Shown here one piece after another: positions 1 through 51,001 of a stretch of DNA of 51,001 nucleotides. The notes under the pieces are model-generated. The model saw nothing but the letters and a program-made list of their open reading frames with translations, ran no database searches and was not told where the DNA came from. The number at the start of each line of letters is the position of its first letter. Within the stretch, counting starts at the first letter, position 1. Both the position numbers and the translations under genes were made by a program. The stretch comes from a virus (Duplodnaviria; Caudoviricetes): IMG/VR virus record IMGVR_UViG_3300020045_001742, positions 1 through 51,001 of that record; one strand, written 5' to 3'.

Positions 1-4
1 GTTG

Positions 5-37
5 GCCCGTCATGATTCGCTCTGACGGGCTTTTTTT
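5..37 (+). terminator. Rho-independent terminator after tail tube gene (copy 1)
   Basis: gcccgtca...tgacgggc stem followed by T7. Confidence 0.8.
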
Positions 38-71
38 CGTATAATTGAAACAAATACACATAAGGAAAACC

Positions 72-527
72 ATGCACCCAGAAACAATTATTATCGGCCA
101 GTCTGAATATACGGCCATGAAGATGAATGCGTTTGACGCTAACAAGATTCTGTTGCGTTTGAACAAGGTTATTTTGCCTGTCATTGGTGGACTCACCAAG
201 GGCAAAGGCTCCGTCAATCTGTTGGATGCTGATTTGAGTGAGGTGACTAATATCCTTGCTGAAAATCTCACCGAGGAAGTAATGGACTCAATTGTTTTCC
301 CTATGTTTGCAAATTCGCGGGTTTACTTTGTTGAAAAGAAGATTTTCATTAAAGACGCGATGGGCGTAAACCAAGCGTTTACCGCTGATAACCTGTTTGA
401 CTTTTATGAATTAATCTGGGAGGTTCTTAAACTGAACTTTGCTGTTTTTTTCAAAAAAGCGGCGGGGAACTTTGGGAGCCTAACCGCCGGGGCTCAAACT
501 CAAGTGGCGAAGCCCCCGGCAAATTAA
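72..527 (+). CDS. Tail assembly chaperone (lambda gpG-like position)
   Basis: Between tube and TMP genes; ATG at 72 preceded by AAGGA; slippery T TTT TTC near 3' end. Confidence 0.85.
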   Translation: MHPETIIIGQSEYTAMKMNAFDANKILLRLNKVILPVIGGLTKGKGSVNLLDADLSEVTNILAENLTEEVMDSIVFPMFANSRVYFVEKKIFIKDAMGVNQAFTADNLFDFYELIWEVLKLNFAVFFKKAAGNFGSLTAGAQTQVAKPPAN

Positions 528-697
528 GAGCTGATCTAGAGTCTGAACTTTGGATATGGCGTCCTATATTGGCAAAGAAAACCACTATCACAGAGGTGAA
601 AAGTGGTTTTTGTAGTGTTGAAGACTTAATGAAGTTGAATGCTTTAATGGATATGCAAGATGCATATCAAGATCAGGCGATGAATAAGAAAGATTGA
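452..697 (+). CDS. -1 frameshift extension of tail assembly chaperone (gpGT-like)
   Basis: -1 frame open from slippery site (446-452) to TGA 695-697, reading ...GKLRADLESELWIWRPILAKK...; conserved in copy 2. Confidence 0.75.
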   Translation, partial: QKSGGELWEPNRRGSNSSGEAPGKLRADLESELWIWRPILAKKTTITEVKSGFCSVEDLMKLNALMDMQDAYQDQAMNKKD

Positions 698-701
698 ATA
701 T

Positions 702-2198
702 ATGGCAACGGTGCGTGAATTAGTGACAAAAATTTCCTTCGGTCTTGACCAAGGGAGTCTTAACCGTGCCGAAAGTTCAATAAGTAAATTGTCAGGCATG
801 CTGTCAGGCATCGCCGCTTTTGCGTCTTTGCGTGCATTGGCTGGAGTTGCTGATTCAATGCAGTCGCTTGAAGCTCGTATCGGGATGTTGCCTCAGACCG
901 TTGGATCAGTAGGTGATGCTTTTAACGAAGTGTCAAAACATGCGAGTGATAACCGCCAGTCTCTTGATGCTTACGGTACGCTTTATAACCGCATCGGCAA
1001 TGCAGCCAAGGACTATGTAAAAACTCAGGGTGATTTATTAAAAGTGACTGACACAATCAGTCAGGCTCTTGTCGTTGGTGGTGCTACGGCTCAAGAGGCA
1101 TCGTCTGTAATGACTCAGTTTAGTCAGGCATTGGGTGCTGGTACATTGCAGGGTGAAGAGTTCAGGGCTATGGCAGAGGCAGCGCCGCAGTACATGGATG
1201 AATTGGCTATCGCGCTCGGTGTTCCTCGCAGTGAAATGAAAAAGCTGGCAAGCGAAGGAAAGATAACATCAAAACAGGTTATTGAAGCAACAATGAAAAT
1301 GTCAAGCATTTTTGAGGATAAATTCCGCAAAATGCCAATGACTATTGGTGCTGCAACTTCAATCATTGGCAACAAGTTTAAAACGATGGTTCAGAATCTG
1401 AACCGTGAATCTCAGGTCGTCACCAATGTGGCAAACTTCTTTTTGAATGTTTTTGATCGCATTGAATCTGGTTTTAAATCGTTTGTTGAATTTGTAGGTG
1501 GTGGGACTAACGCATTGAAAGTCTTTGGCATTGCACTCGCTGCAATCCTAGGCCCTATCGCGCTTGGTGGCCTGCTAAGCGTGCTTGGTGCCATCCTGTC
1601 ACCCGCCGGGCTATTGGTGGCTTCGCTTGTCTTGCTTGGCTTGGCTATTGACGATATTTACACGTACATGGAAGGCGGTCAGTCGCTGTTTGGTGACTTC
1701 TTGAAAGATTTGAAAAATGGCGATACCATCACGCTTGCATTGACTGCTGGACTTGTGGCCGCTACGGCGCAGTTTGGATATGTCGCCATTGCTTACGCTG
1801 CTATGTGGGCCAAAATGCGTATTACGGCACTCCTAGAGGGTGCTCGCGTTGCTGGTGCTTGGCTTATGGCGATGGGGCCGGTGGGATGGGGTATTGCTGC
1901 TGGCGCTGGTATTGTGCTTGGTATTGGTGCGCTAATGAACCATGTAAACAGCACTATTGCCGCAGAAGGTGGATCACCGAGAATTGGGCCTGGTAGCGTA
2001 AACCCTCAAACCCTGTTACCCGCCAGAAACCTAGCTCCTGCTGCCAATGTGACAAAAACAGTCAACCAGACCAACAATTTCACATTGCCACCGGGTACGC
2101 CACAATCACACGCCGATATGCTTGGTGGTCAGGTTGTAAATATCTTCGGTCCAGCAAATGAAAAGCTGGCGCGTGACATTAATGCTCAGGGTAATTAA
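702..2198 (+). CDS. Tape measure protein, allele A
   Basis: Ala/Gly-rich helical protein with QFSQALGAGTLQGEEF tape-measure-type motif and hydrophobic C-terminal half; synteny. Confidence 0.92.
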   Translation: MATVRELVTKISFGLDQGSLNRAESSISKLSGMLSGIAAFASLRALAGVADSMQSLEARIGMLPQTVGSVGDAFNEVSKHASDNRQSLDAYGTLYNRIGNAAKDYVKTQGDLLKVTDTISQALVVGGATAQEASSVMTQFSQALGAGTLQGEEFRAMAEAAPQYMDELAIALGVPRSEMKKLASEGKITSKQVIEATMKMSSIFEDKFRKMPMTIGAATSIIGNKFKTMVQNLNRESQVVTNVANFFLNVFDRIESGFKSFVEFVGGGTNALKVFGIALAAILGPIALGGLLSVLGAILSPAGLLVASLVLLGLAIDDIYTYMEGGQSLFGDFLKDLKNGDTITLALTAGLVAATAQFGYVAIAYAAMWAKMRITALLEGARVAGAWLMAMGPVGWGIAAGAGIVLGIGALMNHVNSTIAAEGGSPRIGPGSVNPQTLLPARNLAPAANVTKTVNQTNNFTLPPGTPQSHADMLGGQVVNIFGPANEKLARDINAQGN

Positions 2199-2822
2199 AT
2201 GATCGGCTTTTACTACTCAGGTCAAAATGCTGGAACAAAGGTTTTTGGCGGCATCGCGTCAATCGACTTTGATGCAACGTTAGACGAACTACACGACTGG
2301 CGCAATGAGGTAACTCAAAACCCTGTTGAAACTGGTTCTCCAGTCACTGACCATGTGATCGAACGATCGGACAAACTGAAGTTGACAGGAACCATTACAA
2401 ACAGCCCTTTACGCGGCGAGTTTGCTGGTCAATACTTTGGTGGCGACAATGAATCTCCACGCATTCAGACGGCTTTTGATGCCATTAGATCGCTGTTTAA
2501 GTCGCGTGATGTGGTAGTAGTTTATACAAAGCACGCAATCTATACCGATATGGTTATTGAATCAGTTTCTATACCACGTAACGCTCAGATTGGTGAAGAG
2601 GTGCAGTTTACGATGGAGCTGGTTAATATCCGCTTTGTTGACACTCAGTTGGTAAAGTTGCCACCGGGTATTAGTGCAAAGAAGGATAAAAAGGCAGGTG
2701 GTTCTGGTGGCGCTACTGCTAAGAAAGCAGAATCACAAAAGACGGCTGGAAATAAAGCTTTGGATGAAAACTATAAAACTCGCGCTCAAGCGTCTAGCAT
2801 TCTGAAAAAGGTGTTTCAATGA
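2199..2822 (+). CDS. Baseplate/tail tube initiator (Dit-like) protein
   Basis: VTQNPVETGSPVTDH motif typical of post-TMP proteins in this myovirus layout. Confidence 0.75.
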   Translation: MIGFYYSGQNAGTKVFGGIASIDFDATLDELHDWRNEVTQNPVETGSPVTDHVIERSDKLKLTGTITNSPLRGEFAGQYFGGDNESPRIQTAFDAIRSLFKSRDVVVVYTKHAIYTDMVIESVSIPRNAQIGEEVQFTMELVNIRFVDTQLVKLPPGISAKKDKKAGGSGGATAKKAESQKTAGNKALDENYKTRAQASSILKKVFQ

Positions 2823-3256
2823 TTCTCGCTGAAATTCCACTGTTATCAGATACGACTGACCAACTGGTTGACGTTGTTTTAAGTGATAACCCATACACTT
2901 TGCGCATTCTTTGGAATGAGCGGTATGGTTATTTTTCACTGTCAATTTACGCCCGCGATGGTGCTGTAATTCTTGAGAATATCAAGATGGTGAAAAACTA
3001 TCCGCTAATTGGACGGTTTAAAAATACACTGTTACCAATTGGTGATTTGTATTTCATTGATAACAAAAACAAGAATTCACGCGCACTTTACGAATCAATA
3101 GGAACTGGTGATTATTCATTGGTGTATTACGTGCCGGATGATGTTGTCACCATTGAATCCGTGGTGATTACACCTGTAGAAGCTGTTAGTGGCAGCATAT
3201 GGGACTCAGGCTTGACGGTATTCGATGGCGGATCATCGGTTTGGGATGGTGCCTAA
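2819..3256 (+). CDS. Baseplate plug-like protein
   Basis: YTLRILWNER motif; lies between Dit-like and hub genes; Trp-Asp-rich C-terminal tail. Confidence 0.6.
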   Translation: MILAEIPLLSDTTDQLVDVVLSDNPYTLRILWNERYGYFSLSIYARDGAVILENIKMVKNYPLIGRFKNTLLPIGDLYFIDNKNKNSRALYESIGTGDYSLVYYVPDDVVTIESVVITPVEAVSGSIWDSGLTVFDGGSSVWDGA

Positions 3257-4179
3257 TGGCTTTATTTGACCGTGTAGCCTCGTTAACTGTTGGTAAGCCA
3301 GACGGTAAAGCCGTTGAGATTCGTGATCTACGGTTTTCATTTGCCATTGAAAAGGGTTCGATTGACACGCCAAATACGTGCAATTGCAGAATCTACAACT
3401 TGAATAAAGACTCACGGGCTTTAGTTGAGACTGTCAACAATATTCTGATATTGAAGGCTGGTTATAAGCGTGATGTGGGTGAAATTACTATTTTCACCGG
3501 TACGGTTACGCGGGCTTTGACTCGCATTGAAGGTGCTGATTCTGTCACTGAACTTGAAATGTCGGACGGTGGTGCTGAATACAAAGATACAAAAACAGCA
3601 TTCAGCTTCGCGCCGGGTGTATCGGCACAGCAAGTTTTAAGCAACATCGCTGCAACTTTTAACCTGCCCATCCGGCCATTGCCAAGTGACATAGCAACCA
3701 AAACATATCCAGACGGCTTCGCCTTCATTGGCCGGTCACGCGAAGCCATGAAAAAGGCTTGTGACTTTCTGGGTCTTGAGTGGTCAATCCAGAATAGAGA
3801 GTTACAGATACTTAAACAAGGTAAAGCTGTTGATATGCAAGCCTTTGTTTTGTCACCTGATACCGGCTTGATTGAGTCGCCGGAATCAGAGCATAAAATT
3901 CTATCTGAAAAAGCAGCCGCTAAAAAAGGCTTCACCGAAAAGCAAAAAGGCGTTCGCGTTACTTATGGCGAGACTGAATCTGGTAAAAATGAAAAGCGCT
4001 TAGAAGTCCAAGGCTATCGCGTTAAAAGCCTTTTGCAGCCAGCATTGCAACCGGGTGGATATGTTCGCTTGGATACTCGAGGGATTGATAAGGAATACTT
4101 TAAAGTCGAAACTGTAACCCATTCTGGCGATACTCACGGCGCTGACTGGTTTTCGCAGTTGGTTTTGCGGTACGTGTAA
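3256..4179 (+). CDS. Baseplate hub protein
   Basis: IYNLN, LKAGY, WSIQN, SPDTGLIESP and HSGDTHG motifs; ATG overlaps upstream TAA. Confidence 0.8.
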   Translation: MALFDRVASLTVGKPDGKAVEIRDLRFSFAIEKGSIDTPNTCNCRIYNLNKDSRALVETVNNILILKAGYKRDVGEITIFTGTVTRALTRIEGADSVTELEMSDGGAEYKDTKTAFSFAPGVSAQQVLSNIAATFNLPIRPLPSDIATKTYPDGFAFIGRSREAMKKACDFLGLEWSIQNRELQILKQGKAVDMQAFVLSPDTGLIESPESEHKILSEKAAAKKGFTEKQKGVRVTYGETESGKNEKRLEVQGYRVKSLLQPALQPGGYVRLDTRGIDKEYFKVETVTHSGDTHGADWFSQLVLRYV

Positions 4180-4252
4180 TGGCTCAGGCTTTCCACCTGA
4201 TTGTCGCGCTAACTCCGCGATAGTAGCTTGTCTAGAACAAGCCAGTTAGGGT

Positions 4253-4420
4253 GGGGTGGCCGGTAGTGAATTTCCGGCTTGGTGTCCTTACGTTTGCAGA
4301 GAGAGCCTATTGCATGCATGGCTGCACTTACCCGCTATTTCTCACACCTTGAGTCATATCCTGTCGAGCCGGGTGGGGATTTCCGGTACTCGTAGCGCAT
4401 CACAACTGCGCATTCACCCC
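4253..4420 (-). ncRNA. Putative structured tRNA-shaped ncRNA (family unassigned)
   Basis: Closing stem GGGGUG/CACCCC, flanking arms GCGCA/UGCGC and GCCGG/CCGGC with complementary loops GUGA/UCAC, plus internal stems. Confidence 0.6.
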
Positions 4421-4580
4421 GTAAATATTGATGGTGCAAGTGAGCTTTATACACTTGACGCTTTTATTTAGTTCACCATCAATCATGAACCCTGACTTTA
4501 CCCATACCCGTTAAAACATGGCAAGGCTCATGATTGATAGTCCACGTCTTTCCGTGGTGTCATTTAACTTTGGTTAACAG

Positions 4581-4596
4581 TTACATGATAATCTCC
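4581..4596 (-). promoter_or_regulatory. Start-stop minigene (GGAG-6 nt-AUG UAA)
   Basis: Minus strand reads ggagattatcATGTAA. Confidence 0.45.
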
Positions 4597-4646
4597 AGTC
4601 CACTGATTAAGATTTGCTAGTTCAAGACTGAATCTTAACGCCATTT

Positions 4647-4691
4647 CACTCAAAAATTCAATTTTGTCAAAATAAATTTATGGGCTAAAAT
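4647..4691. promoter_or_regulatory. Overlapping divergent sigma70-like promoters
   Basis: + strand TTGTCA(4664)-16-TAAAAT(4686); - strand TTGACA at 4670-4665 with a weak TGAAAT -10. Confidence 0.45.
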
Positions 4692-4698
4692 GTGTTAT

Positions 4699-5385
4699 AT
4701 GGCAGAAAACAACGACTTTATCAGCGCGCTAAAAAGCATGGTTGACGGTCGCCTGCATGAAATCAATACAAGCCTTCCCGGTGTGATTGTTAGTTACGCC
4801 AATGGCCGCGCTAGTGTGCAGCCTACGCCTAAACGCCGATTTGCTGACGGGGATGTGTTGACGTTTCCAATCCTGCAAAACGTCCGGGTGTGTTGGCCTA
4901 GCTTTAGTGGCGGGTCAGCGGGTGTTAAGGGGCCGATTAAGTCCGGTGATAAGTGTCTTTTGGTGTTCGCACAGCAAGCGGTTGACGGAACTGATGATGC
5001 TCGCCGGTTTGATATTTCAGACTCGTATTGCATCCCGTGTGACCTCGGTAGTGCTGGCGCTGGCGATAGTGGCAACAATGCCGATTTAACGGTGTTTTAC
5101 GGGGCTGCGTCAATGCGCCTTACCGCTGGTGGTGCCTTGCTGATTACAGCGCCTGGAGGTGTCACTATTGAGGCCCCTAGCACCACCAACACCGGGACAC
5201 TGACGATTGAAGGATTACTATCTTACATGGCTGGAATGGCTGGCGTTGGCGGCGGTGCTGGGTCTACTATTATTGGCGAACTCACTCAGGCGGGTGGCGC
5301 ATTGTCTAGCAACGGAATCACGCTTTCTACTCACGTTCACAGTGGCGTTCAGTCTGGGCCATCAAATACAGGGGCACCGGTTTGA
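4699..5385 (+). CDS. Baseplate central spike (Gp138/gpV-like)
   Basis: HEINTSLPGVIVSY and GDKCLLVF N-terminal motifs; C-terminal THVHSGV HxH metal-binding tip. Confidence 0.9.
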   Translation: MAENNDFISALKSMVDGRLHEINTSLPGVIVSYANGRASVQPTPKRRFADGDVLTFPILQNVRVCWPSFSGGSAGVKGPIKSGDKCLLVFAQQAVDGTDDARRFDISDSYCIPCDLGSAGAGDSGNNADLTVFYGAASMRLTAGGALLITAPGGVTIEAPSTTNTGTLTIEGLLSYMAGMAGVGGGAGSTIIGELTQAGGALSSNGITLSTHVHSGVQSGPSNTGAPV

Positions 5386-5849
5386 TTGATATTGCATTAG
5401 ACAAAATAACCCATGATCTAGTATTGGTTGACAATGATCTGGTGATGCTAGATGGCGCTGAGCGTGTTCGTCAGAACTTGGCTATCAAGCTAAAATTGTG
5501 GTCTGGAGAGTGGTTTCTTGATACTGAATTTGGTACGCCATACTTAACAGAAATACTTGGTAAGCAGATAAGCCTAGCTGGCGCTGTTGCAGCTTTGAAA
5601 AAGTCAATTTCAGATGTTGACGGAGTGCAGTCAATCACGCGCTTTGAGTTTGATTTTAACCGTTCGTCTAGAAATTTAGATGTGAACTTTGATGTTCAAA
5701 CTCCATACGGAAATTTGAATATTATTAAAGTTCAGCCAAAATATACATCAATGGAATTAATTGCAATTTCTCAGTCTGAAAACTTTTTACTGAATGAAGA
5801 TTACTTCAACACATTGATTAATACAACAATACCATCACACGGATATTAA
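5382..5849 (+). CDS. Baseplate wedge / sheath initiator (gp25-like) with C-terminal extension
   Basis: GEWFLDTEFGTPY and VQTPYG motifs. Confidence 0.8.
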   Translation: MIDIALDKITHDLVLVDNDLVMLDGAERVRQNLAIKLKLWSGEWFLDTEFGTPYLTEILGKQISLAGAVAALKKSISDVDGVQSITRFEFDFNRSSRNLDVNFDVQTPYGNLNIIKVQPKYTSMELIAISQSENFLLNEDYFNTLINTTIPSHGY

Positions 5850-5850
5850 A

Positions 5851-7782
5851 ATGGCACAATTACCTTTAGACAAAGCAATTAAACGACTTCAAACTAATGA
5901 CGAACGGCTTGAAAAGTTTGCCAATGGTGGAGTTGGTGAAAATTACACGTCATCCTCTGGCGCCATTGTTCCGTCTATTCAAAAGTTTTTAGCCACCAAG
6001 AATACAGAGATTAATGTAGGTGCTGAAAGTGCTTTAGCAGGTGCTGTGGCTGCAAAGGATGCCGCTGAATTAAGTGCCACTGAAGCGGCTGATTCAGCGG
6101 CGTCTTTGATTGGATCAGGTACTGCTGCATTGGTTGGCACAGTTCCTGCCGGTAATTTGACGGCTGTTAATGTTCAGGGCGCGTTGGACGAACTGGATTA
6201 TGAGAAGGTTGCTGTTAATCAATTGGCTTCGTCGGATGGCTCATCGCTGGTGGGGTATATGCCTGCTGGGGTTGGGGCTGTTGCTACTACTGTACAGAAG
6301 AAGCTACGGGAGAGCGTGAGTGTGAGTGTGTTGGATTTTGGGGCGGTGGGGGATGGGGTTGCGAATGATACGTCGGCTATTCAGGCGGCGATTGAAAGCA
6401 TTAAAGCAATCGGGGGCTCTGTATTTTTTCCGCCCGGAAGTTATAACATTAGCTCGCCAATAGTGCTTTGGTCTAACATAATGATGTTTAGCGATTTTGG
6501 TGCAGCAACCATTATCAAGACTTCCGCAACCACCTACACGGGGTCAAGTGGAGTCGCAAAGAACGCTGTCATATATTTGGATGCGCCATCCGGGTTTACT
6601 TCTCGATCCAAAATCGAGGGGCTAACCATTATCGGAGATCGCACTACTGTCACCGGAATATTCCTAGGAAACTCCAACAAGATAACTGTAGATAGTGTAA
6701 CTATTGACGGGGTTTTGACGGGTGTTCGTGGCGAATCAAATTTTCTAATCACTATGTCGCAAGTGCGCGTAAATTCGTCTGCATTTGCTTTTGACTTTAG
6801 TGGTACATCCGATAAAACATCATTGAATTTTCAAAGTTGTTACGCGGAGGCATGCGGTGGAGGCTGGGCTTTTTCGGCAACAAAGTACACCACCCTAAAT
6901 GGCTGCGCTGCGGACTATATCAACACAGGTGGCAAGCCTGGCAACCCTTACGGCGCGGCGGCTGGAGGTAACTACCTTGCCGAGGGGTATGTTTATCTTT
7001 TTTCTGCATCCGATGTTGTACTAAATGGCTGTGGATGTGAAAGCTCTACTGCATCATATATTTATGCGGAATCTTCTAACGTCACATTAAATTCTTGTAA
7101 CGGGTACTTGATAGAAAATTACTTTGGAGCAACGTCTTACATTACAGCATTTATTCAATTACGGGGCATTACACCATCGACTGTAATTTTGAACGCTTGT
7201 GCATTCAGCGGTATTGCAAATCAATCTGGCGTTACCACGCAATATGTAAAAGGAGTTTATTGCGAGACACCTTTATTACAAAAATTTGTTGCCACTTCAT
7301 GGCCTGTTGTCACTGGTTATGGAGCTGGATACGATTACCAGAATCTAGGACATACGGTCCCGAATCTACTTTCTACTAATGCTCAAGAAAATAATATTGA
7401 CACTACCGGAACATGGATTCCAACGTTTTCAGCGTCAGTAGGTACTTTTGGCTCAATCAGTTACTCTGTTCAATCAGGTCGTTACTCTAGAATTGGCGAC
7501 ATGGTTATTGCTAATTTTACTATAGTAGTTTCTGCTGTAACTATTGGTACTGCTGGTGGAGCTTTGCAAATTGGAGGACTTCCTTTTACAGTTTCAGGAG
7601 CAGAAGGTCAGGCTAACTATCGAGATGTGTTCGCATCACAGGGTCCTGATTTTATTCAGTACAGCGGTGTTGGGACAAATATGCTTCTTCGATACAAAAC
7701 AGCCACAAGTTACGCAAATGTTCCGCCTACGGCTATACAGACGAACTCAATGCTTCAAGGTACCATAACCTATTATCTATGA
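5851..7782 (+). CDS. Tailspike-like protein with pectate-lyase-superfamily beta-helix (putative depolymerase)
   Basis: VSVLDFGAVGDGVANDTSAIQAAI and VFFPPGSY motifs, beta-helix-like repeats, C-terminal GTWIPT..GRYSRIGDMV domain. Confidence 0.8.
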   Translation: MAQLPLDKAIKRLQTNDERLEKFANGGVGENYTSSSGAIVPSIQKFLATKNTEINVGAESALAGAVAAKDAAELSATEAADSAASLIGSGTAALVGTVPAGNLTAVNVQGALDELDYEKVAVNQLASSDGSSLVGYMPAGVGAVATTVQKKLRESVSVSVLDFGAVGDGVANDTSAIQAAIESIKAIGGSVFFPPGSYNISSPIVLWSNIMMFSDFGAATIIKTSATTYTGSSGVAKNAVIYLDAPSGFTSRSKIEGLTIIGDRTTVTGIFLGNSNKITVDSVTIDGVLTGVRGESNFLITMSQVRVNSSAFAFDFSGTSDKTSLNFQSCYAEACGGGWAFSATKYTTLNGCAADYINTGGKPGNPYGAAAGGNYLAEGYVYLFSASDVVLNGCGCESSTASYIYAESSNVTLNSCNGYLIENYFGATSYITAFIQLRGITPSTVILNACAFSGIANQSGVTTQYVKGVYCETPLLQKFVATSWPVVTGYGAGYDYQNLGHTVPNLLSTNAQENNIDTTGTWIPTFSASVGTFGSISYSVQSGRYSRIGDMVIANFTIVVSAVTIGTAGGALQIGGLPFTVSGAEGQANYRDVFASQGPDFIQYSGVGTNMLLRYKTATSYANVPPTAIQTNSMLQGTITYYL

Positions 7783-15998: not shown

Positions 15999-16229
15999 TT
16001 AAAAATCCTCGGTTTTGATCAATGCTTTGGTTTCAATCAATCCAATAATTCCAACTGATAGCAATTCTGCAATGTCGATACCGTTCAGCTTTGCAGTCTC
16101 AAGAATGCAGTACCCTGGATTATCTGGCTCCATTTGCACGCCATTCTCACGACTTCCTATCTCTGGTGGCTCATATCCAAACTCACACTCAAGTTCGCCA
16201 CCGTCGAAAATGTAAGTATATGTAATCAC
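15999..16229 (-). CDS. Hypothetical protein
   Basis: LECEFGYEPPEIGSRE..QMEPD motif. Confidence 0.65.
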   Translation of the reverse strand: MITYTYIFDGGELECEFGYEPPEIGSRENGVQMEPDNPGYCILETAKLNGIDIAELLSVGIIGLIETKALIKTEDF

Positions 16230-16711
16230 AATACCATCTCCAATTGGTTAGCCGCGTTATTCAATGCGGTAGCCATGTCACGGGCCTGTTGTGGTGTCAT
16301 TGAGTGCAAAAAATGCATTGAACCTAAATTCTGATGCACCTGAACCAATTTTCCTATGGTGGGCTCACTGTGAATTGCAGTCATGACAGTTACAAAATCC
16401 ATATTTGTAAAGTTTGGTATTAGGACGTTTTCCATTTTGTCTTTCGTGTTGTTGATTGATTTACCGATTTCAGCGGCTGCGCGGACGATTGCGCGTCGCA
16501 TGGAGGAATATTTGCATTTGCCTGCATGGTTTCTCAAATTTGCATTCATCAAATTTAGCTTAATCATAAGGCGGAAAGCATCACCATCTTTTGTTAGCGG
16601 ATTCCATCCAATAGGATATTTACACTCCCATCCAGAAAAGTTACCTTCGTTATTTTCAATTAGATCAGCAGCCTTTGCAGCCAACTCAAGTAATTCACGA
16701 TCAGTCATCAT
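16226..16711 (-). CDS. Hypothetical protein, apparent in-frame fusion of two small genes (second start 16435)
   Basis: TDRELLELAAKAA..WNPL..DGDAFRL..RRAIVRAAAEIGK module, then a leader-like repeat and MENVL. Confidence 0.6.
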   Translation of the reverse strand: MMTDRELLELAAKAADLIENNEGNFSGWECKYPIGWNPLTKDGDAFRLMIKLNLMNANLRNHAGKCKYSSMRRAIVRAAAEIGKSINNTKDKMENVLIPNFTNMDFVTVMTAIHSEPTIGKLVQVHQNLGSMHFLHSMTPQQARDMATALNNAANQLEMVL

Positions 16712-16728
16712 AATTACTTTCATGTTGA

Positions 16729-38428: not shown

Positions 38429-38457
38429 TAAAAAGGGGCTTAACGGCCCCTTTTTTT
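38429..38457. terminator. Bidirectional terminator
   Basis: aaaaaggggc-ttaacg-gccccttttttt. Confidence 0.85.
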
Positions 38458-39373
38458 ATGCATACTTCCAAGTAAATCCGTATGCTGTTTTTCTTTTTCC
38501 ATGAATAACATTGCTGATTCTTGTTGATGTAGATTTTTCATTTACATTTTTCTTCAGCCAATCAACGGCACGGGCTTGATTACTAAATATCAATCCATTC
38601 TCTACACAAATAACTTTCTTGCCGCTATCTTCATAAAACTTTTTACGACTCGAAAGAATTTTTTCTTTTATTGCTTTATCAGAACTAATTCTCAACATAT
38701 TAGCCCTTGCTTTTTCTAATCTATCTGGATTTGAATAAGATTTTTTAGATGCAATCGAAAGTCTTTCTCTGAGACCTTGATCTGAAAATGCTAATTTGCA
38801 AGAAATTGACATTTTATTTTTGTAAGATTCTGACTTAACAATCTCTAAGAATTTGGCTTTTACTTCTGGTTTGTGCATGGAATTATTATCTCCACACATG
38901 GATGGTCGTGGCTTTCTCATTTTGGACCTAACATCTTCGCGCCTTGCTGGATTCTTATCACCGCTTACATCCGGCCTATTTATAGATGATTTTTGAGCGT
39001 TAGACATCCTTTTGCGTGATTCTTCACTTCTTTTTTTACCGGTGTGGAATGCAACTGTTTTTGCAATAGTTTCAACTGATCGTATTGATCCGCTGCAACC
39101 ATCGCCGCCATCAGTACAGTTTGCTAAGTTATCACGACCATACGAAGCTATCAACTCGATTTCAAGCTCAAACGCCCACCATTCAAGCATATTGTTTTGC
39201 ACAATCTCAATTGTGTATCTATGCTTTGCAACTATGTTTTTCCAGTGCTGGTTACGCTGGGTAGATTTTGATCTTGAACCAGACCCCTTCCCAACATAAA
39301 ACACCCGCCCATCACTAGCCCTACGATGCACGTAAACATAGAAACTTTTTGATGTAGAATCGACCTTAGCCAT
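38456..39373 (-). CDS. Free-standing GIY-YIG homing endonuclease with NUMOD-type repeats
   Basis: FYVYVH..VFYVGKG..R, AFELE..LI, LANCTDGGDG, GKKRSEESRKRMS, KKVICVENG..KTAYGFTWKY. Confidence 0.88.
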   Translation of the reverse strand: MAKVDSTSKSFYVYVHRRASDGRVFYVGKGSGSRSKSTQRNQHWKNIVAKHRYTIEIVQNNMLEWWAFELEIELIASYGRDNLANCTDGGDGCSGSIRSVETIAKTVAFHTGKKRSEESRKRMSNAQKSSINRPDVSGDKNPARREDVRSKMRKPRPSMCGDNNSMHKPEVKAKFLEIVKSESYKNKMSISCKLAFSDQGLRERLSIASKKSYSNPDRLEKARANMLRISSDKAIKEKILSSRKKFYEDSGKKVICVENGLIFSNQARAVDWLKKNVNEKSTSTRISNVIHGKRKTAYGFTWKYA

Positions 39374-44259: not shown

Positions 44260-44442
44260 TTAAGTTGTTTTGTGCATTGTTTCAAGTGCGTCCTGAATTA
44301 CGCTTGACAGTTCAGGCCATGATTCGTGGTTGACGATATTTTTAATTTCGATTTGTGAACCTCCTTCGTCAAACATATCAATCACGGCCAGTAGCTCTGT
44401 GCCTTCGTAAATCTCGTATTTAACTGGGGTTGCGGTGATCAT
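44260..44442 (-). CDS. Hypothetical protein
   Basis: SD aagga; acidic 60 aa. Confidence 0.6.
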   Translation of the reverse strand: MITATPVKYEIYEGTELLAVIDMFDEGGSQIEIKNIVNHESWPELSSVIQDALETMHKTT

Positions 44443-47068: not shown

Positions 47069-47086
47069 TCTCTGGGGTGTGCGTTG

Positions 47087-47119
47087 GCCCGTCATGATTC
47101 GCTCTGACGGGCTTTTTTT
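47087..47119 (+). terminator. Rho-independent terminator after tail tube gene (copy 2)
   Basis: gcccgtca/tgacgggc stem plus T7. Confidence 0.8.
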
Positions 47120-47153
47120 CGTATAATTGAAACAAATACACATAAGGAAAACC

Positions 47154-47612
47154 ATGCACCCAGAAACAATTATTATCGGCCAGTCTGAATATACGGCCAT
47201 GAAGATGAATGCGTTTGACGCTAACAAGATTCTGTTGCGTTTGAACAAGGTTATTTTGCCTGTCATTGGTGGACTCACCAAGGGCAAAGGCTCCGTCAAT
47301 CTGTTGGATGCTGATTTGAGTGAGGTAACTAATATCCTAGCTGAAAATCTCACCGAAGAGGTTATGGATTCGATTGTGTTCCCGATGTTTGCAAACTCGC
47401 GGGTTTACTTTATTGAAAAGAAGATTTTCATTAAAGATGCAATGGGTGTAAACCAAGCGTTTACCGCTGATAACCTGTTTGACTTTTATGAGCTAATCTG
47501 GGAGGTTCTTAAATTGAACTTTGCAGTTTTTTTCAAAAAAGCGGCGGGGAACTTTGGGAGCCTAACCGCCGGGGCTCAAACTCAAGTGTCGAAAAGTCTC
47601 CCGGTAAATTAA
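47154..47612 (+). CDS. Tail assembly chaperone, allele B (-1 frame extension to 47800)
   Basis: Near-identical to 72..527; same slippery site. Confidence 0.85.
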   Translation: MHPETIIIGQSEYTAMKMNAFDANKILLRLNKVILPVIGGLTKGKGSVNLLDADLSEVTNILAENLTEEVMDSIVFPMFANSRVYFIEKKIFIKDAMGVNQAFTADNLFDFYELIWEVLKLNFAVFFKKAAGNFGSLTAGAQTQVSKSLPVN

Positions 47613-47786
47613 GAGCTGATCTAGAGTCTGAACTTTGGATATGGCGTCCTATATTGGCAAAGAAAACCACTATCACCGAGGTGAAAAACGGTACTTGCAG
47701 CGTTGAAGACTTGATGAAGTTGAATGCTTTAATGGATATGCAAGATGCCTATCAAGATCAGGCGATGAATAAGAAAGATTTAATAT

Positions 47787-49268
47787 ATGGCAGTTGTTAG
47801 AGAGTTGATTACCCGTTTGGGCTTTGGCGTAGATCAGGCAAGCCTGAACCGTGCCGAAGGCTCTATTAACAAGCTGTCAGGTATGCTTTCAGGCATTGCT
47901 GCATTCGCTTCTTTGCGTGCTTTGGCTGGTGTGGCTGATTCGATGCAGTCTCTAGAGGCTCGCATTGGGATGCTGCCGCAGACTATTGGAAATGTAGGTG
48001 TTGCGTTTGACACAATTGCAGGTCGTGCATCAAATGCCAAGCAATCAATCGATGCGTATGGCGCATTTTATGTAAAGGCTGGTAACGCCACTCAGGACTT
48101 TATTAAGACTCAGGAAGAGCTTTTAAACATCGTTGACGGGGCTGCATTTGGATTGGCCGCTAGTGGCGCTGGAGCTGTAGAGCAATCACAAGCATTTTTC
48201 CAACTTGGCCAAGCCATCGGCTCTCCGATTGTCCAAATGGAAGAGATGAATACGCTGATTGACGTAGCTCCCGATCTGTTGCGAGAGCTTGGTAAGCAAA
48301 TTCCTGGCGCTGAAGGAAACTTGAAAAAGTTTATTGGCACGGGTAAAGTTACCGGGAAAATGTTAGCTGAAGGATTGACTAAAGCGGCTGTCATTTTTGA
48401 AGACAAAATGCGCAAAATGCCAATGACAATTGGAGTTGCTACGGTATTAATTACCAACGACTTTAAAAAGATGGTGGCGCGTCTTAATCGTGAGTCTGGT
48501 GTTATTACTGGCATTGCTGAATTCATGGCAAGTGGATTTAAGAAGATTGAAGCCAAGTTCAATGCTTTTATTTCATTCGTCGGTGGTGGAACTAACGCGC
48601 TAAAGGTGTTAGGCATTGCCTTGGCTGCGTTGCTTGGACCTATCGCGCTTGGTGGATTGCTTAGTGTGCTTGGTGCTATCTTGTCACCGGCTGGATTGTT
48701 GGTGGCTTCGCTTGTCTTGCTTGGCCTAGCCATTGATGATATTTACACTTACATGGAAGGTGGGCAGTCTCTGTTTGGTGACTTCCTAAGTAGCCTTAAA
48801 AAAGGTGACTTGCTAACTGTTGGACTCACTACCGCATTGGTAGGGTTAACGGCTCAATTTGGTTATGTTGCCATTGCTTATGCAGCAATGTGGGTAAAAA
48901 TGAGGGCTGTTGCCATGATTGAAGGGGCGAAAATTCTAGCCATTCAATTAGCGGCAATGGGGCCTACTGGTTGGGCTATTGCGGCTGGTGTTGGCCTTAC
49001 TTTGGGTGCTGGTTACTTGCTAAGTAAAGCCAATGAAGGTAGCTTGACACCTAAAACTGGCGCTGGTGGAATTGACCCCAAGACATTGCTACGGCCTAAC
49101 CTAGCGCCAGCGTCGCCCACTGCGCCAGCTTTTCACCAAACTAACAATTTCACAATGCCGCCCGGTACTCCTCAAGAGCATATCAACCTGCTTGAAAAAG
49201 GTGCGGTTAATATACTTGGCAGAGAGACTGAGAAAATGGCGCGTGACATGAATGCACAAGGTAATTAA
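47787..49268 (+). CDS. Tape measure protein, allele B
   Basis: Collinear with 702..2198, with alternating conserved and divergent blocks. Confidence 0.92.
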   Translation: MAVVRELITRLGFGVDQASLNRAEGSINKLSGMLSGIAAFASLRALAGVADSMQSLEARIGMLPQTIGNVGVAFDTIAGRASNAKQSIDAYGAFYVKAGNATQDFIKTQEELLNIVDGAAFGLAASGAGAVEQSQAFFQLGQAIGSPIVQMEEMNTLIDVAPDLLRELGKQIPGAEGNLKKFIGTGKVTGKMLAEGLTKAAVIFEDKMRKMPMTIGVATVLITNDFKKMVARLNRESGVITGIAEFMASGFKKIEAKFNAFISFVGGGTNALKVLGIALAALLGPIALGGLLSVLGAILSPAGLLVASLVLLGLAIDDIYTYMEGGQSLFGDFLSSLKKGDLLTVGLTTALVGLTAQFGYVAIAYAAMWVKMRAVAMIEGAKILAIQLAAMGPTGWAIAAGVGLTLGAGYLLSKANEGSLTPKTGAGGIDPKTLLRPNLAPASPTAPAFHQTNNFTMPPGTPQEHINLLEKGAVNILGRETEKMARDMNAQGN

Positions 49269-49901
49269 ATGATAGGTTTTTACTACGGCGGCCCAACTTC
49301 CAGTACAAAAGTGTTTGGTGGAATCGCTTCGATTGACTTTGATGCGACACTTGACGAATTGCACGACTGGCGAAATGAAGTTACACAAAATCCTGTTGAA
49401 TCTGGTTCTCCAGTAACTGACCATGTGATTGAACGGTCTGATCGATTGAAGCTTACAGGAACGATCACAAACAGCCCATTGCGCGGCGAGTTTGCAGGGC
49501 AATACTTTGGTGGCGATAATGAATCGCCTCGCATTCAGACGGCATTTGATGCCATTCGTGAGTTGTTTAAATCGCGTGATGTCGTCGTGGTTTATACCAA
49601 GCACGCCATTTATACCGACATGGTGATCGAATCCGTTTCAATCCCTCGTAATGCTCAGATTGGTGAAGAGGTTCAGTTCACGATGGAACTGGTTAACGTC
49701 CGTTTTGTTGATACTCAATTGGTTAAGTTGCCACCGGGTATCAGTGCAAAGAAGGATAAGAAGGCTGGTAACCTAGGTAAGAAAGCCGAGCCACAAAAAA
49801 CAGCGGGTCAGAAAATGTTAGATGAAAATTACAAGACTCGCGCACAGTCTTCTGGAGTTGCTAAAACAATTTCAGAAAACATTCTCAAGGCTTTCAAATG
49901 A
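49269..49901 (+). CDS. Dit-like baseplate protein, allele B
   Basis: Homologous to 2199..2822. Confidence 0.78.
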   Translation: MIGFYYGGPTSSTKVFGGIASIDFDATLDELHDWRNEVTQNPVESGSPVTDHVIERSDRLKLTGTITNSPLRGEFAGQYFGGDNESPRIQTAFDAIRELFKSRDVVVVYTKHAIYTDMVIESVSIPRNAQIGEEVQFTMELVNVRFVDTQLVKLPPGISAKKDKKAGNLGKKAEPQKTAGQKMLDENYKTRAQSSGVAKTISENILKAFK

Positions 49902-50332
49902 TTCTCGCTGAAATCCCACTGTTAGCAGATACGACTGACCAACTGGTTGACGTTGTTTTAAGTGATAACCCATACACTTTACGTATTCTTTGGAATGAAA
50001 AGTACGGTTATTTTTCACTGTCAATTTACGCTCGGGATGGTGCTGTCATTCTTGAGAATATCAAGATGGTGAAAAACTACCCGCTAATTGGCCGGTTTAA
50101 AAATACGCTGTTGCCAATTGGTGATTTGTATTTTATCGACAATAAAAACAAGCATTCACGCGCACTTTACGAATCAGTTGGAACTGGTGATTATTCGCTT
50201 GTTTATTACGTTCCTGATGTTGTTGTATCTGACGTTGTAGTTATCACGCCAGTAGCAGCCGTTAGCGGGTCTATCTGGGACAGTGGCCTGTCGGTATGGG
50301 ATAGCGGCTCGTCTGCGTGGGATGGTGCTTAA
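49898..50332 (+). CDS. Baseplate plug-like protein, allele B
   Basis: Homologous to 2819..3256. Confidence 0.65.
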   Translation: MILAEIPLLADTTDQLVDVVLSDNPYTLRILWNEKYGYFSLSIYARDGAVILENIKMVKNYPLIGRFKNTLLPIGDLYFIDNKNKHSRALYESVGTGDYSLVYYVPDVVVSDVVVITPVAAVSGSIWDSGLSVWDSGSSAWDGA

Positions 50333-51001
50333 ATGGCTTTATTTGACCGTATAGCATCGCTAACTGTCGGCAAGCCTGATGGTAAAGCCGTCGAGATTCG
50401 TGATCTACGGTTTTCATTCGCCATTGAAAAGGGCTCGATTGATACACCCAATTCGTGTACCTGCCGCATCTACAATTTAAACAAAGACTCACGCGCCTTA
50501 GTTGAGACTGTCAACAACATTCTGATTCTGAAGGCTGGTTACAAGCGCGACGTGGGCGAGATTACCATTTTCACCGGTACGGTTACGCGGGCTTTAACTC
50601 GCATTGAAGGCGCTGATTCTGTCACCGAGTTGGAAATGTCAGACGGCGGTGCGGAATACAAAGACACAAAGACTTCTTTTAGCTTCGCGCCGGGTGTGTC
50701 TGCGCAACAAGTTTTAAGCAACATCGCTGCAACTTTTAATCTACCTATCCGGCCACTGCCAAAAGAGATAGCGACAAAGACTTACCCAGACGGGTTCGCC
50801 TTCATTGGCCGGTCACGCGAAGCCATGAAAAAGGCTTGTGATTTTCTTGGCCTTGAATGGTCAATCCAGAATCGTGAGTTGCAGATCCTGAAACAAGGTA
50901 AAGCTGTTGATATGCAAGCCTTTGTTTTGTCACCTGACACCGGGTTGATTGAGTCACCTGAATCAGAGCATAAAATTTACTCTGAAAAGACAGCCGCTAA
51001 A
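50333..51001 (+). CDS. Baseplate hub, allele B (truncated by window end)
   Basis: Homologous to 3256..3924; no stop before the end. Confidence 0.85.
   Translation, partial: MALFDRIASLTVGKPDGKAVEIRDLRFSFAIEKGSIDTPNSCTCRIYNLNKDSRALVETVNNILILKAGYKRDVGEITIFTGTVTRALTRIEGADSVTELEMSDGGAEYKDTKTSFSFAPGVSAQQVLSNIAATFNLPIRPLPKEIATKTYPDGFAFIGRSREAMKKACDFLGLEWSIQNRELQILKQGKAVDMQAFVLSPDTGLIESPESEHKIYSEKTAAK

Follow-up and report, generated by a model that had tools for sequence, protein, structure and literature searches.

A structured minus-strand RNA between baseplate genes

We analyzed a non-coding gap of 510 base pairs (bp; positions 4180-4689) in the tail module of a virus of the class Caudoviricetes, IMG/VR record IMGVR_UViG_3300020045_001742; the window referred to throughout is this whole viral record of 51,001 bp. 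The gap follows the open reading frame (ORF) of a baseplate hub-like protein, which ends at 4179 (3199-4179, plus strand, 326 amino acids (aa); phrog_196, E = 2.2e-71), and precedes the next long ORF, which starts at 4690 or at the ATG at 4699. A first-pass annotation, made from the sequence alone, had described some 510 bp without a convincing ORF, almost entirely tiled by stems. Both statements hold: the listed stems are all present (including 4253-4258/4415-4420, TCAGG/CCTGA, TCGCG/CGCGA and CCACG/CGTGG), and the sole ORF of at least 60 aa in the gap (4256-4471, plus strand, 71 aa) has no match in PHROGs. We rejected a protein-coding reading because the lengths of the homologues (152-183 nucleotides (nt)) differ by non-multiples of three; the sole similarity found for the 71-aa ORF is to an ORF overlying the same RNA in locus L005 (L-numbered loci are viral contigs, L001 being Curvibacter phage P26059A). 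On comparative grounds, the element at 4253-4420 is a real structured RNA of the minus strand, and its reality rests on covariation, not on folding energy.

The main RNA is about 172 nt long (4421-4250, within 4249-4422 on the minus strand; score with our covariance model R1 178.8 bits) and consists of a frame resembling the top half of a transfer RNA (tRNA) and a conserved centre. In the order of the minus strand, the closing stem P1 (4420-4415 with 4258-4253, GGGGUG/CACCCC) has 6 bp in the window and 7 bp in most members of the family. Its 5' strand is followed by an AAU linker (4414-4412), the hairpin P2 with 5 bp and a 7-nt loop (4411-4395), the centre of 117 nt (4394-4279), and the hairpin P5 with 5 bp and an 8-10-nt loop (4278-4259), which abuts the 3' strand of P1; a 3' tail ACCC (4252-4249) comes last. 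Together P1 and P5 make a continuous 12-bp stack with no nucleotide between them, comparable to that of the acceptor arm on the T arm in tRNA. Between the P2 and P5 loops, 4-5 nt are complementary, and this complementarity is retained by covariation: GUGA/UCAC in the window, L005 and L031, GCUGA/UCAGC in L008, L051, L057, L058 and L061 (CUGA/UCAG in most close relatives), GCGA/UCGC in L052, L053 and L062, UUGC/GCAA in L049 and L056, and, by eye, GUCGA/UCGAC in Cronobacter phage ENT47670. In the member from Curvibacter phage P26059A P5 is absent and the P2 loop is unrelated.

The centre consists of two arms. The long arm (GGUGU/ACACC, GAGA/UCUC, AGC/GCU and a variable tip) has the near-invariant loops GAAAUAGCGGGU, GCAAUAGGCU and UGCAAACGUAAGG, and the invariant loops of the main RNA measure 12-13 nt across 14 phages. 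The short arm closes as CGAG/YUCG according to RNAalifold, or as GAGU/ACUC, an option that covaries by eye (GGGU/ACCC in L057; UAGC/GCUA in L052, L053 and L062). In this model the overall outline is a five-way junction that resembles the cloverleaf of a tRNA with a long variable arm. A pseudoknot in the centre between the arm-2 loop and GGAU, suspected by eye, was dropped; it is absent in L005, L006 and the Curvibacter phage.

A blastn search of 50,697 phage records with the gap matched a single place, in Curvibacter phage P26059A. The matching region, about 1 kb without annotation, also contains tRNA genes of the minus strand; the RNA itself lies at 44285-44436 of KY981271 (minus strand). With further members from pattern scans of viral contigs, confirmed with R1, the family has 14 distinct members with scores of 80-179 bits. 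Four further candidates proved to be chance matches and were excluded: L047, L048 and L060, which came from a loose pattern scan, and L004, which came from the first one; gapped-pattern scans yielded 10 metagenome-contig and 7 genome-contig loci, all 17 of them chance matches in coding sequence. BLAST searches of E. coli genomes and plasmids with the main RNA, and of phage records with two GC-rich members, gave no match. No shared neighbour protein was found among the first five family loci.

The homologues carry the covariation that had been proposed as a check on the prediction. In the 14-member alignment 95.1% of the 588 pair cells are standard pairs (mean of shuffled alignments 78.7%, with 0 of 500 shuffles as high), and 29 of the 43 pairs are changed on both sides (shuffled mean 14.1). 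When the partners were slid by 1-3 columns, 32-44% of the cells were paired and at most 11 pairs were compensatory. The helix between the P2 and P5 loops is paired in 87.7% of its cells, against 21-44% in the slid controls, and its positions exchange pair types (GC in 7, CG in 5 and GU in 1 sequence at one position; UA in 8 and CG in 5 at another). A start free of the model, with MAFFT and RNAalifold on five sequences, gave compensatory changes in 16 of 37 pairs.

The folding energy of the region relative to shuffled controls, on which the first-pass annotation had also staked its case, supports the whole array on the minus strand: positions 4180-4640 fold with -146.2 kcal/mol (z = -3.57), and none of 100 shuffles was as good, whereas for the plus strand z = -1.29 and 11 of 100 shuffles were as good. 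The same cannot be said of the element at 4240-4430 taken alone, to which we return below.

Strand of the RNA and the other units of the array

An RNA of the plus strand was favoured at first from one conserved G-T seen by eye, and was overturned by evidence from folding, from G-U and A-C counts and from the orientation of tRNA genes. The consensus fold of one alignment has -29.8 kcal/mol on the minus strand versus -22.2 on the plus strand, with 19 versus 8 G-U cells, and in the 14-member set 37 G-U versus 13 A-C cells are found on the strand of the RNA. The sequence variants of the long hairpin described below are G-C or G-U on the minus strand and always A-C mismatches on the plus strand, in agreement with the earlier remark that the stems extend with G-U pairs on the minus strand. 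This asymmetry and the compensatory changes argue for a single-stranded molecule of the minus strand. All 14 tRNA genes detected at most 400 nt away from a frame-bearing locus run in the direction of the RNA, as do those beside the family members of the Curvibacter phage, L005 and L008. The gene nearest to the RNA, where annotated or supported by PHROGs, lies on the same strand in L001, L057, L058, L052, L049, L053 and L062, and by eye, judged by start sites and tRNA genes, also in L005 and L008 (a tally of the 13 loci other than the window gives 6, and 2 more by eye); among the family loci, the RNA is antisense to its neighbours in the window and L061 only.

The minus-strand TTGACA that had been pointed out at 4670-4665 is present, and with a 16-nt spacer and the -10-like TGAAAT (4648-4643) it makes up a candidate promoter of a leftward unit (4643-4670, minus strand). 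It was not called by the scan tool because its -10 element lacks an A at position 2. The promoter block CCATTTCAC...TTTTGTCAA is near-invariant in all 12 close relatives described below, the remainder of the gap being mosaic. In the more distant L061 the RNA is bracketed by a minus-strand promoter-like TTGACA-17-CATTAT and a minus-strand intrinsic-terminator-like site (9 bp, T7); as predicted sites, these are the strongest indirect evidence that a leftward unit is transcribed. The first-pass annotation had proposed a leftward polycistronic non-coding transcript. We find that the array is non-coding and structured, consists of several units, and is encoded by the minus strand in antisense orientation to the baseplate genes; the leftward unit itself is plausible, in view of the sites in L061 and of the tRNA-Met genes found in 6 of the 12 relatives.

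A plus-strand promoter-like site (TTGTCA-16-TAAAAT, 4664-4691, 10 of 12 matches) overlaps the minus-strand -35 element; it had been overlooked in the first-pass annotation, as had the tRNA-like units and the existence of a family beyond the window phage. The hairpin at 4542-4557 was scored as a weak plus-strand terminator. Both strands may carry signals in the gap, since these two calls of the tools used on the window concern the plus strand. Plus-strand read-through would pair with the minus-strand RNAs, given their antisense position. With these sites in mind, the gap could be viewed as a cis-acting punctuation of the late operon on the plus strand (a terminator and a restart promoter), or as a site that acts in the DNA itself, e.g. 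an origin or a hot spot of recombination, with incidental folds; the TTGATGG/CCATCAA stems common to the unit borders could indeed guide recombination. This explanation is highly improbable in our judgement, as the plus-strand fold is no better than that of shuffled sequences, the family is found in quite different contexts and mostly in sense orientation, and the strand asymmetry with its compensatory changes indicates a single-stranded molecule. A transcript starting about 7 nt past the end of the plus-strand promoter-like site (4691) would begin at the ATG at 4699, which suggests that the mRNA of the downstream gene is leaderless; there is no evident Shine-Dalgarno sequence before either ATG.

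The main RNA is accompanied by several other minus-strand units. The 5'-proximal one is a hairpin, UUAAGAUU/AAUCUUAA (4607-4638; inverted repeat 4607-4614/4631-4638), which appears in the minimum free energy fold of the minus strand. Next comes a small hairpin read from the sequence, CCACG-GAAAGA-CGUGG, preceded by AUGACA in the sense of the RNA (4542-4563). By eye, the combination of AUGACA, a 5-bp stem and an invariant GAAAGA loop recurs in three lineages with different stems: CCACG in the window, GCUCG/CGAGC in L061 (about 1735-1760), and CCCCG/CGGGG in L053, where it lies upstream of the RNA. The third unit is a long, near-perfect hairpin of about 20 bp with an inner CCAU/AUGG stem (4475-4541; inverted repeat 4475-4494/4522-4541), possibly a site for RNase III. 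A search pattern matched it in 10 of the 12 relatives, in 6 sequence variants including that of the window (L031 and L032 end inside it), and by eye Curvibacter phage P26059A has an analogous long hairpin.

Adjoining it is a unit closed by the stem AUUGAUGGUG...CACCAUCAAU, with an inner hairpin (4427-4483; inverted repeat 4427-4436/4474-4483); it is found also in L041, and at its place the other relatives have different units closed by UUGAUGG.../...CCAUCAA. Beyond the main RNA, a terminal unit of three hairpins (4180-4248; stems including 4226-4231/4237-4242) ends with GCCA against the stop codon of the hub gene. By eye it is also present in L034 and L041, with compensatory replacement of TCGCG/CGCGA by TCTCG/CGAGA and of GCTTGT/ACAAGC by GCTTAT/ATAAGC, in addition to a G-U pair on the minus strand.

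According to the PHROG scan, the surrounding tail module is of the myovirus type, with tape measure, hub, a 231-aa ORF and wedge. The 231-aa ORF (4690-5385, plus strand), which had been taken for the spike gene, has a weak match to phrog_20516, and the baseplate wedge gene follows it (5382-5849; phrog_120). Between the wedge and a baseplate J-like gene lies a 643-aa ORF (5851-7782) with matches to tail-spike and pectate-lyase-like PHROGs; this is an unusual site for a spike or depolymerase gene. Elsewhere in the window, a homing-endonuclease-like ORF (phrog_314; 38456-39373, minus strand) lies on the opposite strand directly after the major head protein gene. A protein of unknown function, phrog_5086, is encoded both in the window (16226-16723, minus strand) and directly downstream of the RNA in L052 (1645-1953, plus strand), which is probably a coincidence. 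The ends of the record, 1-3900 and 47083-51001, are direct repeats, 74-97% identical at a spacing of about 47,080 bp, and the record seems to go once round a genome of about 47.1 kb (circular or permuted) and to combine two related strains, with the second copy of the terminal repeat ending at the equivalent of about 3924, just before the gap.

A conserved frame with exchanged centres

We found 12 viral contigs whose hub protein is 90-95% identical to that of the window, and the array lies downstream of the hub gene in all of them. In the 8 relatives whose contig extends as far as the next gene, the gap has 508-1075 bp; in the other 4 the locus breaks off within it. The composition of the gap is mosaic. 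The frame (P1, AAU, P2 and P5) is kept in 12 of 12, with compensatory changes such as GCGCA/UGCGC to GCGAA/UUCGC and GCCGG/CCGGC to GCCUG/CAGGC, and between its parts the 13 phages, including that of the window, have 10 types of centre of 30-117 nt. R1 recognizes the frame-only units of the close relatives weakly (25-39 bits). At the 3' end of the frame NCCA is encoded in 9 of the 13 phages, and in 6 of the 12 relatives a minus-strand tRNA-Met adjoins the frame unit. In L034 and L038 an adjacent module scores above the Rfam threshold for tRNA (32.5 versus 29 bits) and has 42 nt where a tRNA has its 17-nt anticodon arm. The more distant L061 shows the same order of hub, minus-strand RNA, phrog_20516 ORF and phrog_120 wedge. 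As all 12 relatives and L061 have the array in this position, it is a long-standing resident with swapped content, and the earlier description of it as an inserted cassette was loosely worded. In the arrays of other family members ARAGORN called a 99-nt 'tRNA-Pyl' with anticodon CUA (L001, 4498-4596, minus strand) and a tRNA with anticodon UUA ('Stop'; L008, 3883-3955, plus strand), which might be suppressor tRNAs or further tRNA-like RNAs with inserts.

The presence of a true tRNA-Met at the same site in relatives, the mosaic arrangement of modules between close relatives and the lack of an ARAGORN call in the window would also be expected of a decaying tRNA cluster, in which the units are pseudo-tRNAs and recombination debris without a function of their own. 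Some centres even contain tRNA-like pieces by eye (a hairpin like a T arm in L037 and one like an anticodon arm in L030). Debris would hardly be expected, however, to keep invariant loops of 12-13 nt and 29 of 43 covarying pairs over 14 phages (no protein being shared by the flanks of the first five loci), nor would it yield a frame with covarying closing stems in at least 120 contigs or leave the gap, at 508-1075 bp, in every one of the 8 relatives that reach the next gene. We regard such decay as very unlikely.

A scan of viral contigs with a 20-base motif of the frame, GGTGAATGCGCAGNNNGATGCGC, detected it in at least 120 contigs, and 80 of these loci were fetched. The closing strand is present after a P5-like hairpin in 69 of the 80 loci, compared with 1-5 of 80 for shifted control 7-mers. 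The three variable bases that precede GGUG are complementary to the three that follow CACC in 55 of 59 cases (shuffled mean 24.7, maximum 33), through at least 11 complementary triplet pairs, and the complement of the P2 loop is found in the P5 region in 52 of 62. The fetched loci contain 64 distinct frame RNAs of 84-214 nt, with about 50 types of centre at a cutoff of at least 80% identity. Contexts are diverse, e.g. between the genes for DNA polymerase and SSB, upstream of terS, and between Q and holin, and mostly in sense orientation. By eye, downstream of many frame RNAs there is either a terminator-like hairpin and its T run or, immediately adjacent, the start of a same-strand gene. The RNA of Cronobacter phage ENT47670 is located between the gene for a Q-like antiterminator and that for holin, after a terminator-like hairpin, i.e. 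as a leader of the late operon; this unit was missed by R1.

L052 has two tandem frame RNAs (1041-1201 and 1387-1563, plus strand), one with the type of centre seen in the window and one with another. A canonical-looking T arm, GGGGUUCGAAUCCCC, lies between them, with no tRNA call by ARAGORN or Rfam. Downstream of the frame RNA in L095, the spacer and terminator (465-518, plus strand) have a sub-threshold match (30.3 versus 37 bits) to isrJ, a small RNA of Salmonella prophages, which might be the 3' end of a related transcript.

The likeness of the frame to tRNA, its NCCA end in 9 of 13 phages, the location of part of the loci within tRNA arrays and the fast turnover of content, as in accessory hot spots, are also compatible with a tRNA-mimicking decoy or sponge for anticodon nucleases or other tRNA-cleaving defences, or for enzymes that modify or mature tRNA; phage tRNAs are reported to counter a retron defence (10.1101/2023.03.15.532788). 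Such a role, which the first-pass annotation had raised, is speculative and rather unlikely in view of the centres, which at 30 to 161 nt are unlike anticodon arms, and of the surroundings, where no defence or counter-defence gene is consistently found nearby and the flanks of the first five loci share no protein.

Proposed mechanism and comparison with known systems

The reading we favour, with somewhat better than even confidence, is that the gap encodes a leftward minus-strand array of non-coding RNAs that descends from a phage tRNA cluster or is built like one, and that its main RNA of about 172 nt is a host-processed frame displaying an exchangeable centre. The array would be transcribed by the host RNA polymerase from the promoter beside the start of the spike gene. 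Host enzymes of tRNA maturation would then cut it into units, RNase P acting 5' of the closing stem, followed by trimming at the 3' side, and RNase III possibly cleaving at the long hairpin. Within the main RNA, the 12-bp minihelix of P1 and P5 would mimic the acceptor and T arms, the pairing of the P2 and P5 loops would stand in for the tRNA elbow, and the two-armed centre of 117 nt would replace the anticodon half. The tRNA-like frame would serve as a handle for processing and stability that displays the centre, and the centre would be the working part, binding a partner of the host or of the phage; the frame would be a widespread phage platform and the centre freely exchanged. The recurrence of one frame with dozens of inserts suggests a previously unrecorded phage way to make and vary small RNAs.

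A bolder version, which we put forward as a speculative possibility, is that of a natural 'RNA display cassette', common to phages of many lineages and excised and stabilized by the tRNA-maturation enzymes of the host, whose dozens of unrelated payloads (aptamers, decoys or guides) would form an accessory arsenal against host defences or rival phages and be traded by cassette exchange, in the manner of protein anti-defence genes in hot spots. The 117-nt payload of the window, present in 14 phages, would then be one widely successful member.

Several observations weigh against the favoured reading of a tRNA-like, host-processed frame. ARAGORN calls no tRNA in the window; the Rfam tRNA model RF00005 has no hit in 3800-5100 at E up to 10 and none at gathering score in the entire window, and the Rfam models of tRNA and transfer-messenger RNA (tmRNA) have no match in the window, nor (at E up to 1) in the frame units of the relatives. 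The loop of the putative T arm has 8-10 nt and does not follow the T-loop consensus UUCRANY (AAAUUCACUA in the window, AGAUCAGUA in relatives). A 3' CCA is not conserved over the 14 family members, the window having ACCC. Only 8 of 60 frame loci have a tRNA gene within 400 nt, and none was found within 1.5 kb of 9 later-found members of the centre family. The minus-strand -10 element of the window lacks the key A and is overlapped by the plus-strand promoter-like site. Neither strand of the element at 4240-4430, taken alone, folds more stably than its shuffles (z = -0.45 and +0.76), one helix of the centre can be drawn with either of the two pairings given above, and the alignments behind the pair counts were fitted to the model and hence are biased in its favour. 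One run labelled metagenomic RNA-Seq, with a small share of the stretch (0.05), comprises 5 contigs from relatives, which cover 4108-4239, 4273-4313 and 4629-5156 and are uninformative on expression.

If the frame is a handle for processing and stability, it would explain how phages can produce a wide variety of small RNAs with no promoter or terminator dedicated to each. It would also imply a large unannotated pool of phage RNA, with payloads that might affect host defences or translation, and the frame could serve as a natural scaffold for the expression of RNA in bacteria. For genome annotation, such intergenic 'gaps' in structural operons are not to be read as empty.

Small stable RNAs of phage tRNA regions are already known as a kind. 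What is absent from Rfam and from the literature we searched is the frame with its loop-loop elbow, the exchange of centres in the manner of cassettes, and the conserved centre of 117 nt. The first-pass annotation had put the region forward as its best candidate for an undescribed system, and Rfam indeed has no match in the window, in the relatives (their tRNAs aside), or in 9 further members and L006; in 20 frame loci it found tRNAs, the sub-threshold isrJ outside the frame, and nothing else. Neither the phrase 'tRNA-like stable RNAs' nor two strings of the frame were found in the literature, in a search outside of which most subscription journals lie. A group I intron, a retron and a diversity-generating retroelement were rejected, with no Rfam match and no reverse transcriptase family among 28 further ORFs of the window compared with PHROGs.

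With regard to tRNA itself, P1 and P5 reproduce the 7-bp acceptor stacked without a gap on a 5-bp T stem (P1 having 6 bp in the window), and in place of the 5-bp anticodon stem with a 7-nt loop the window has the 117-nt centre. A top half like that of tRNA combined with a large insert replacing the anticodon arm is a feature shared with tmRNA. In the window, however, neither ARAGORN nor Rfam calls a tmRNA, the pair equivalent to 3:70 is G-C rather than G-U, and no conserved tag frame is seen by eye, the candidate tag reading frames varying between members.

The C4 RNA of phage P1 is, like the frame, a phage small RNA closed by a GGUG...CACC stem, and C4 loops set the specificity of immunity. 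The array RNA might accordingly be an immunity or regulatory antisense RNA of the P1 C4 or P4 CI kind, i.e. an RNase P-processed frame with variable loops that would pair with a target mRNA, the variable centre setting specificity between related phages. The C4 precursor is a substrate of RNase P according to Hartmann et al. (1995), as listed in PMC4919922; in addition, the centre is hypervariable among near-identical phages and, by eye, a gene often starts right after the RNA on the same strand. We nevertheless find this kinship fairly improbable. The Rfam model of C4 (RF01695) detects P1 as a control with 68.8 bits, yet none of 4 records with frame RNAs and nothing in the window, and the C4 of P1 and P7 spans 87 model positions without a large centre; the converse result, a blank of R1 on P1, is uninformative because R1 missed the unit of ENT47670. 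Elsewhere in the genome, complementarity to the gap does not exceed chance (the longest match has 12 nt, with E about 1.2). The centres are no more complementary to their own 250-nt flanks than to those of other loci (longest run on average 6.7-6.8 versus 6.7 nt, in a comparison blind to two sites of 8-9 nt and to host targets). Unlike a specificity determinant, moreover, the centre of the window is conserved across unrelated phages.

Among the nearest described systems are RNAC and RNAD of phage T4, which are likewise small non-coding RNAs from a phage tRNA gene region, described in PMC9697503 as late RNAs of unknown function. A location within a phage tRNA cluster, in the same orientation, is found in relatives, the window itself having no tRNA. 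They differ in that no swappable centre is reported for them in the sources consulted, and in that the array of the window lies antisense inside a baseplate operon. The blastn match of the gap to Curvibacter phage P26059A alone bears on T4 only in so far as T4 is among the 50,697 phage records, which was not checked; the T5 record AY587007 has no small RNAs annotated in its tRNA region. Small RNAs from phage tRNA regions have been known since T4, with roles described as unexplained in PMC3014915 and PMC9697503. To these the locus adds a defined frame with strong comparative support and many natural variants of it. Bench tests are also within reach, as two of the phages that carry the frame, Curvibacter phage P26059A and Cronobacter phage ENT47670, are in culture.

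GOLLD and ROOL RNAs share the phage and tRNA context. They are much larger (on average about 580 nt or more, versus about 172 nt), have Rfam families of their own without a match here, and possess neither a tRNA-like frame nor an exchangeable centre. A working analogy is man-made: the body of a canonical tRNA can be engineered into a handle by which the cell processes and stabilizes an RNA inserted in place of the anticodon region. Engineered 'tRNA scaffold' RNAs are the subject of PMC3753655. The frame described here is natural and non-canonical, with Watson-Crick pairing between two loops replacing the D-loop/T-loop elbow.

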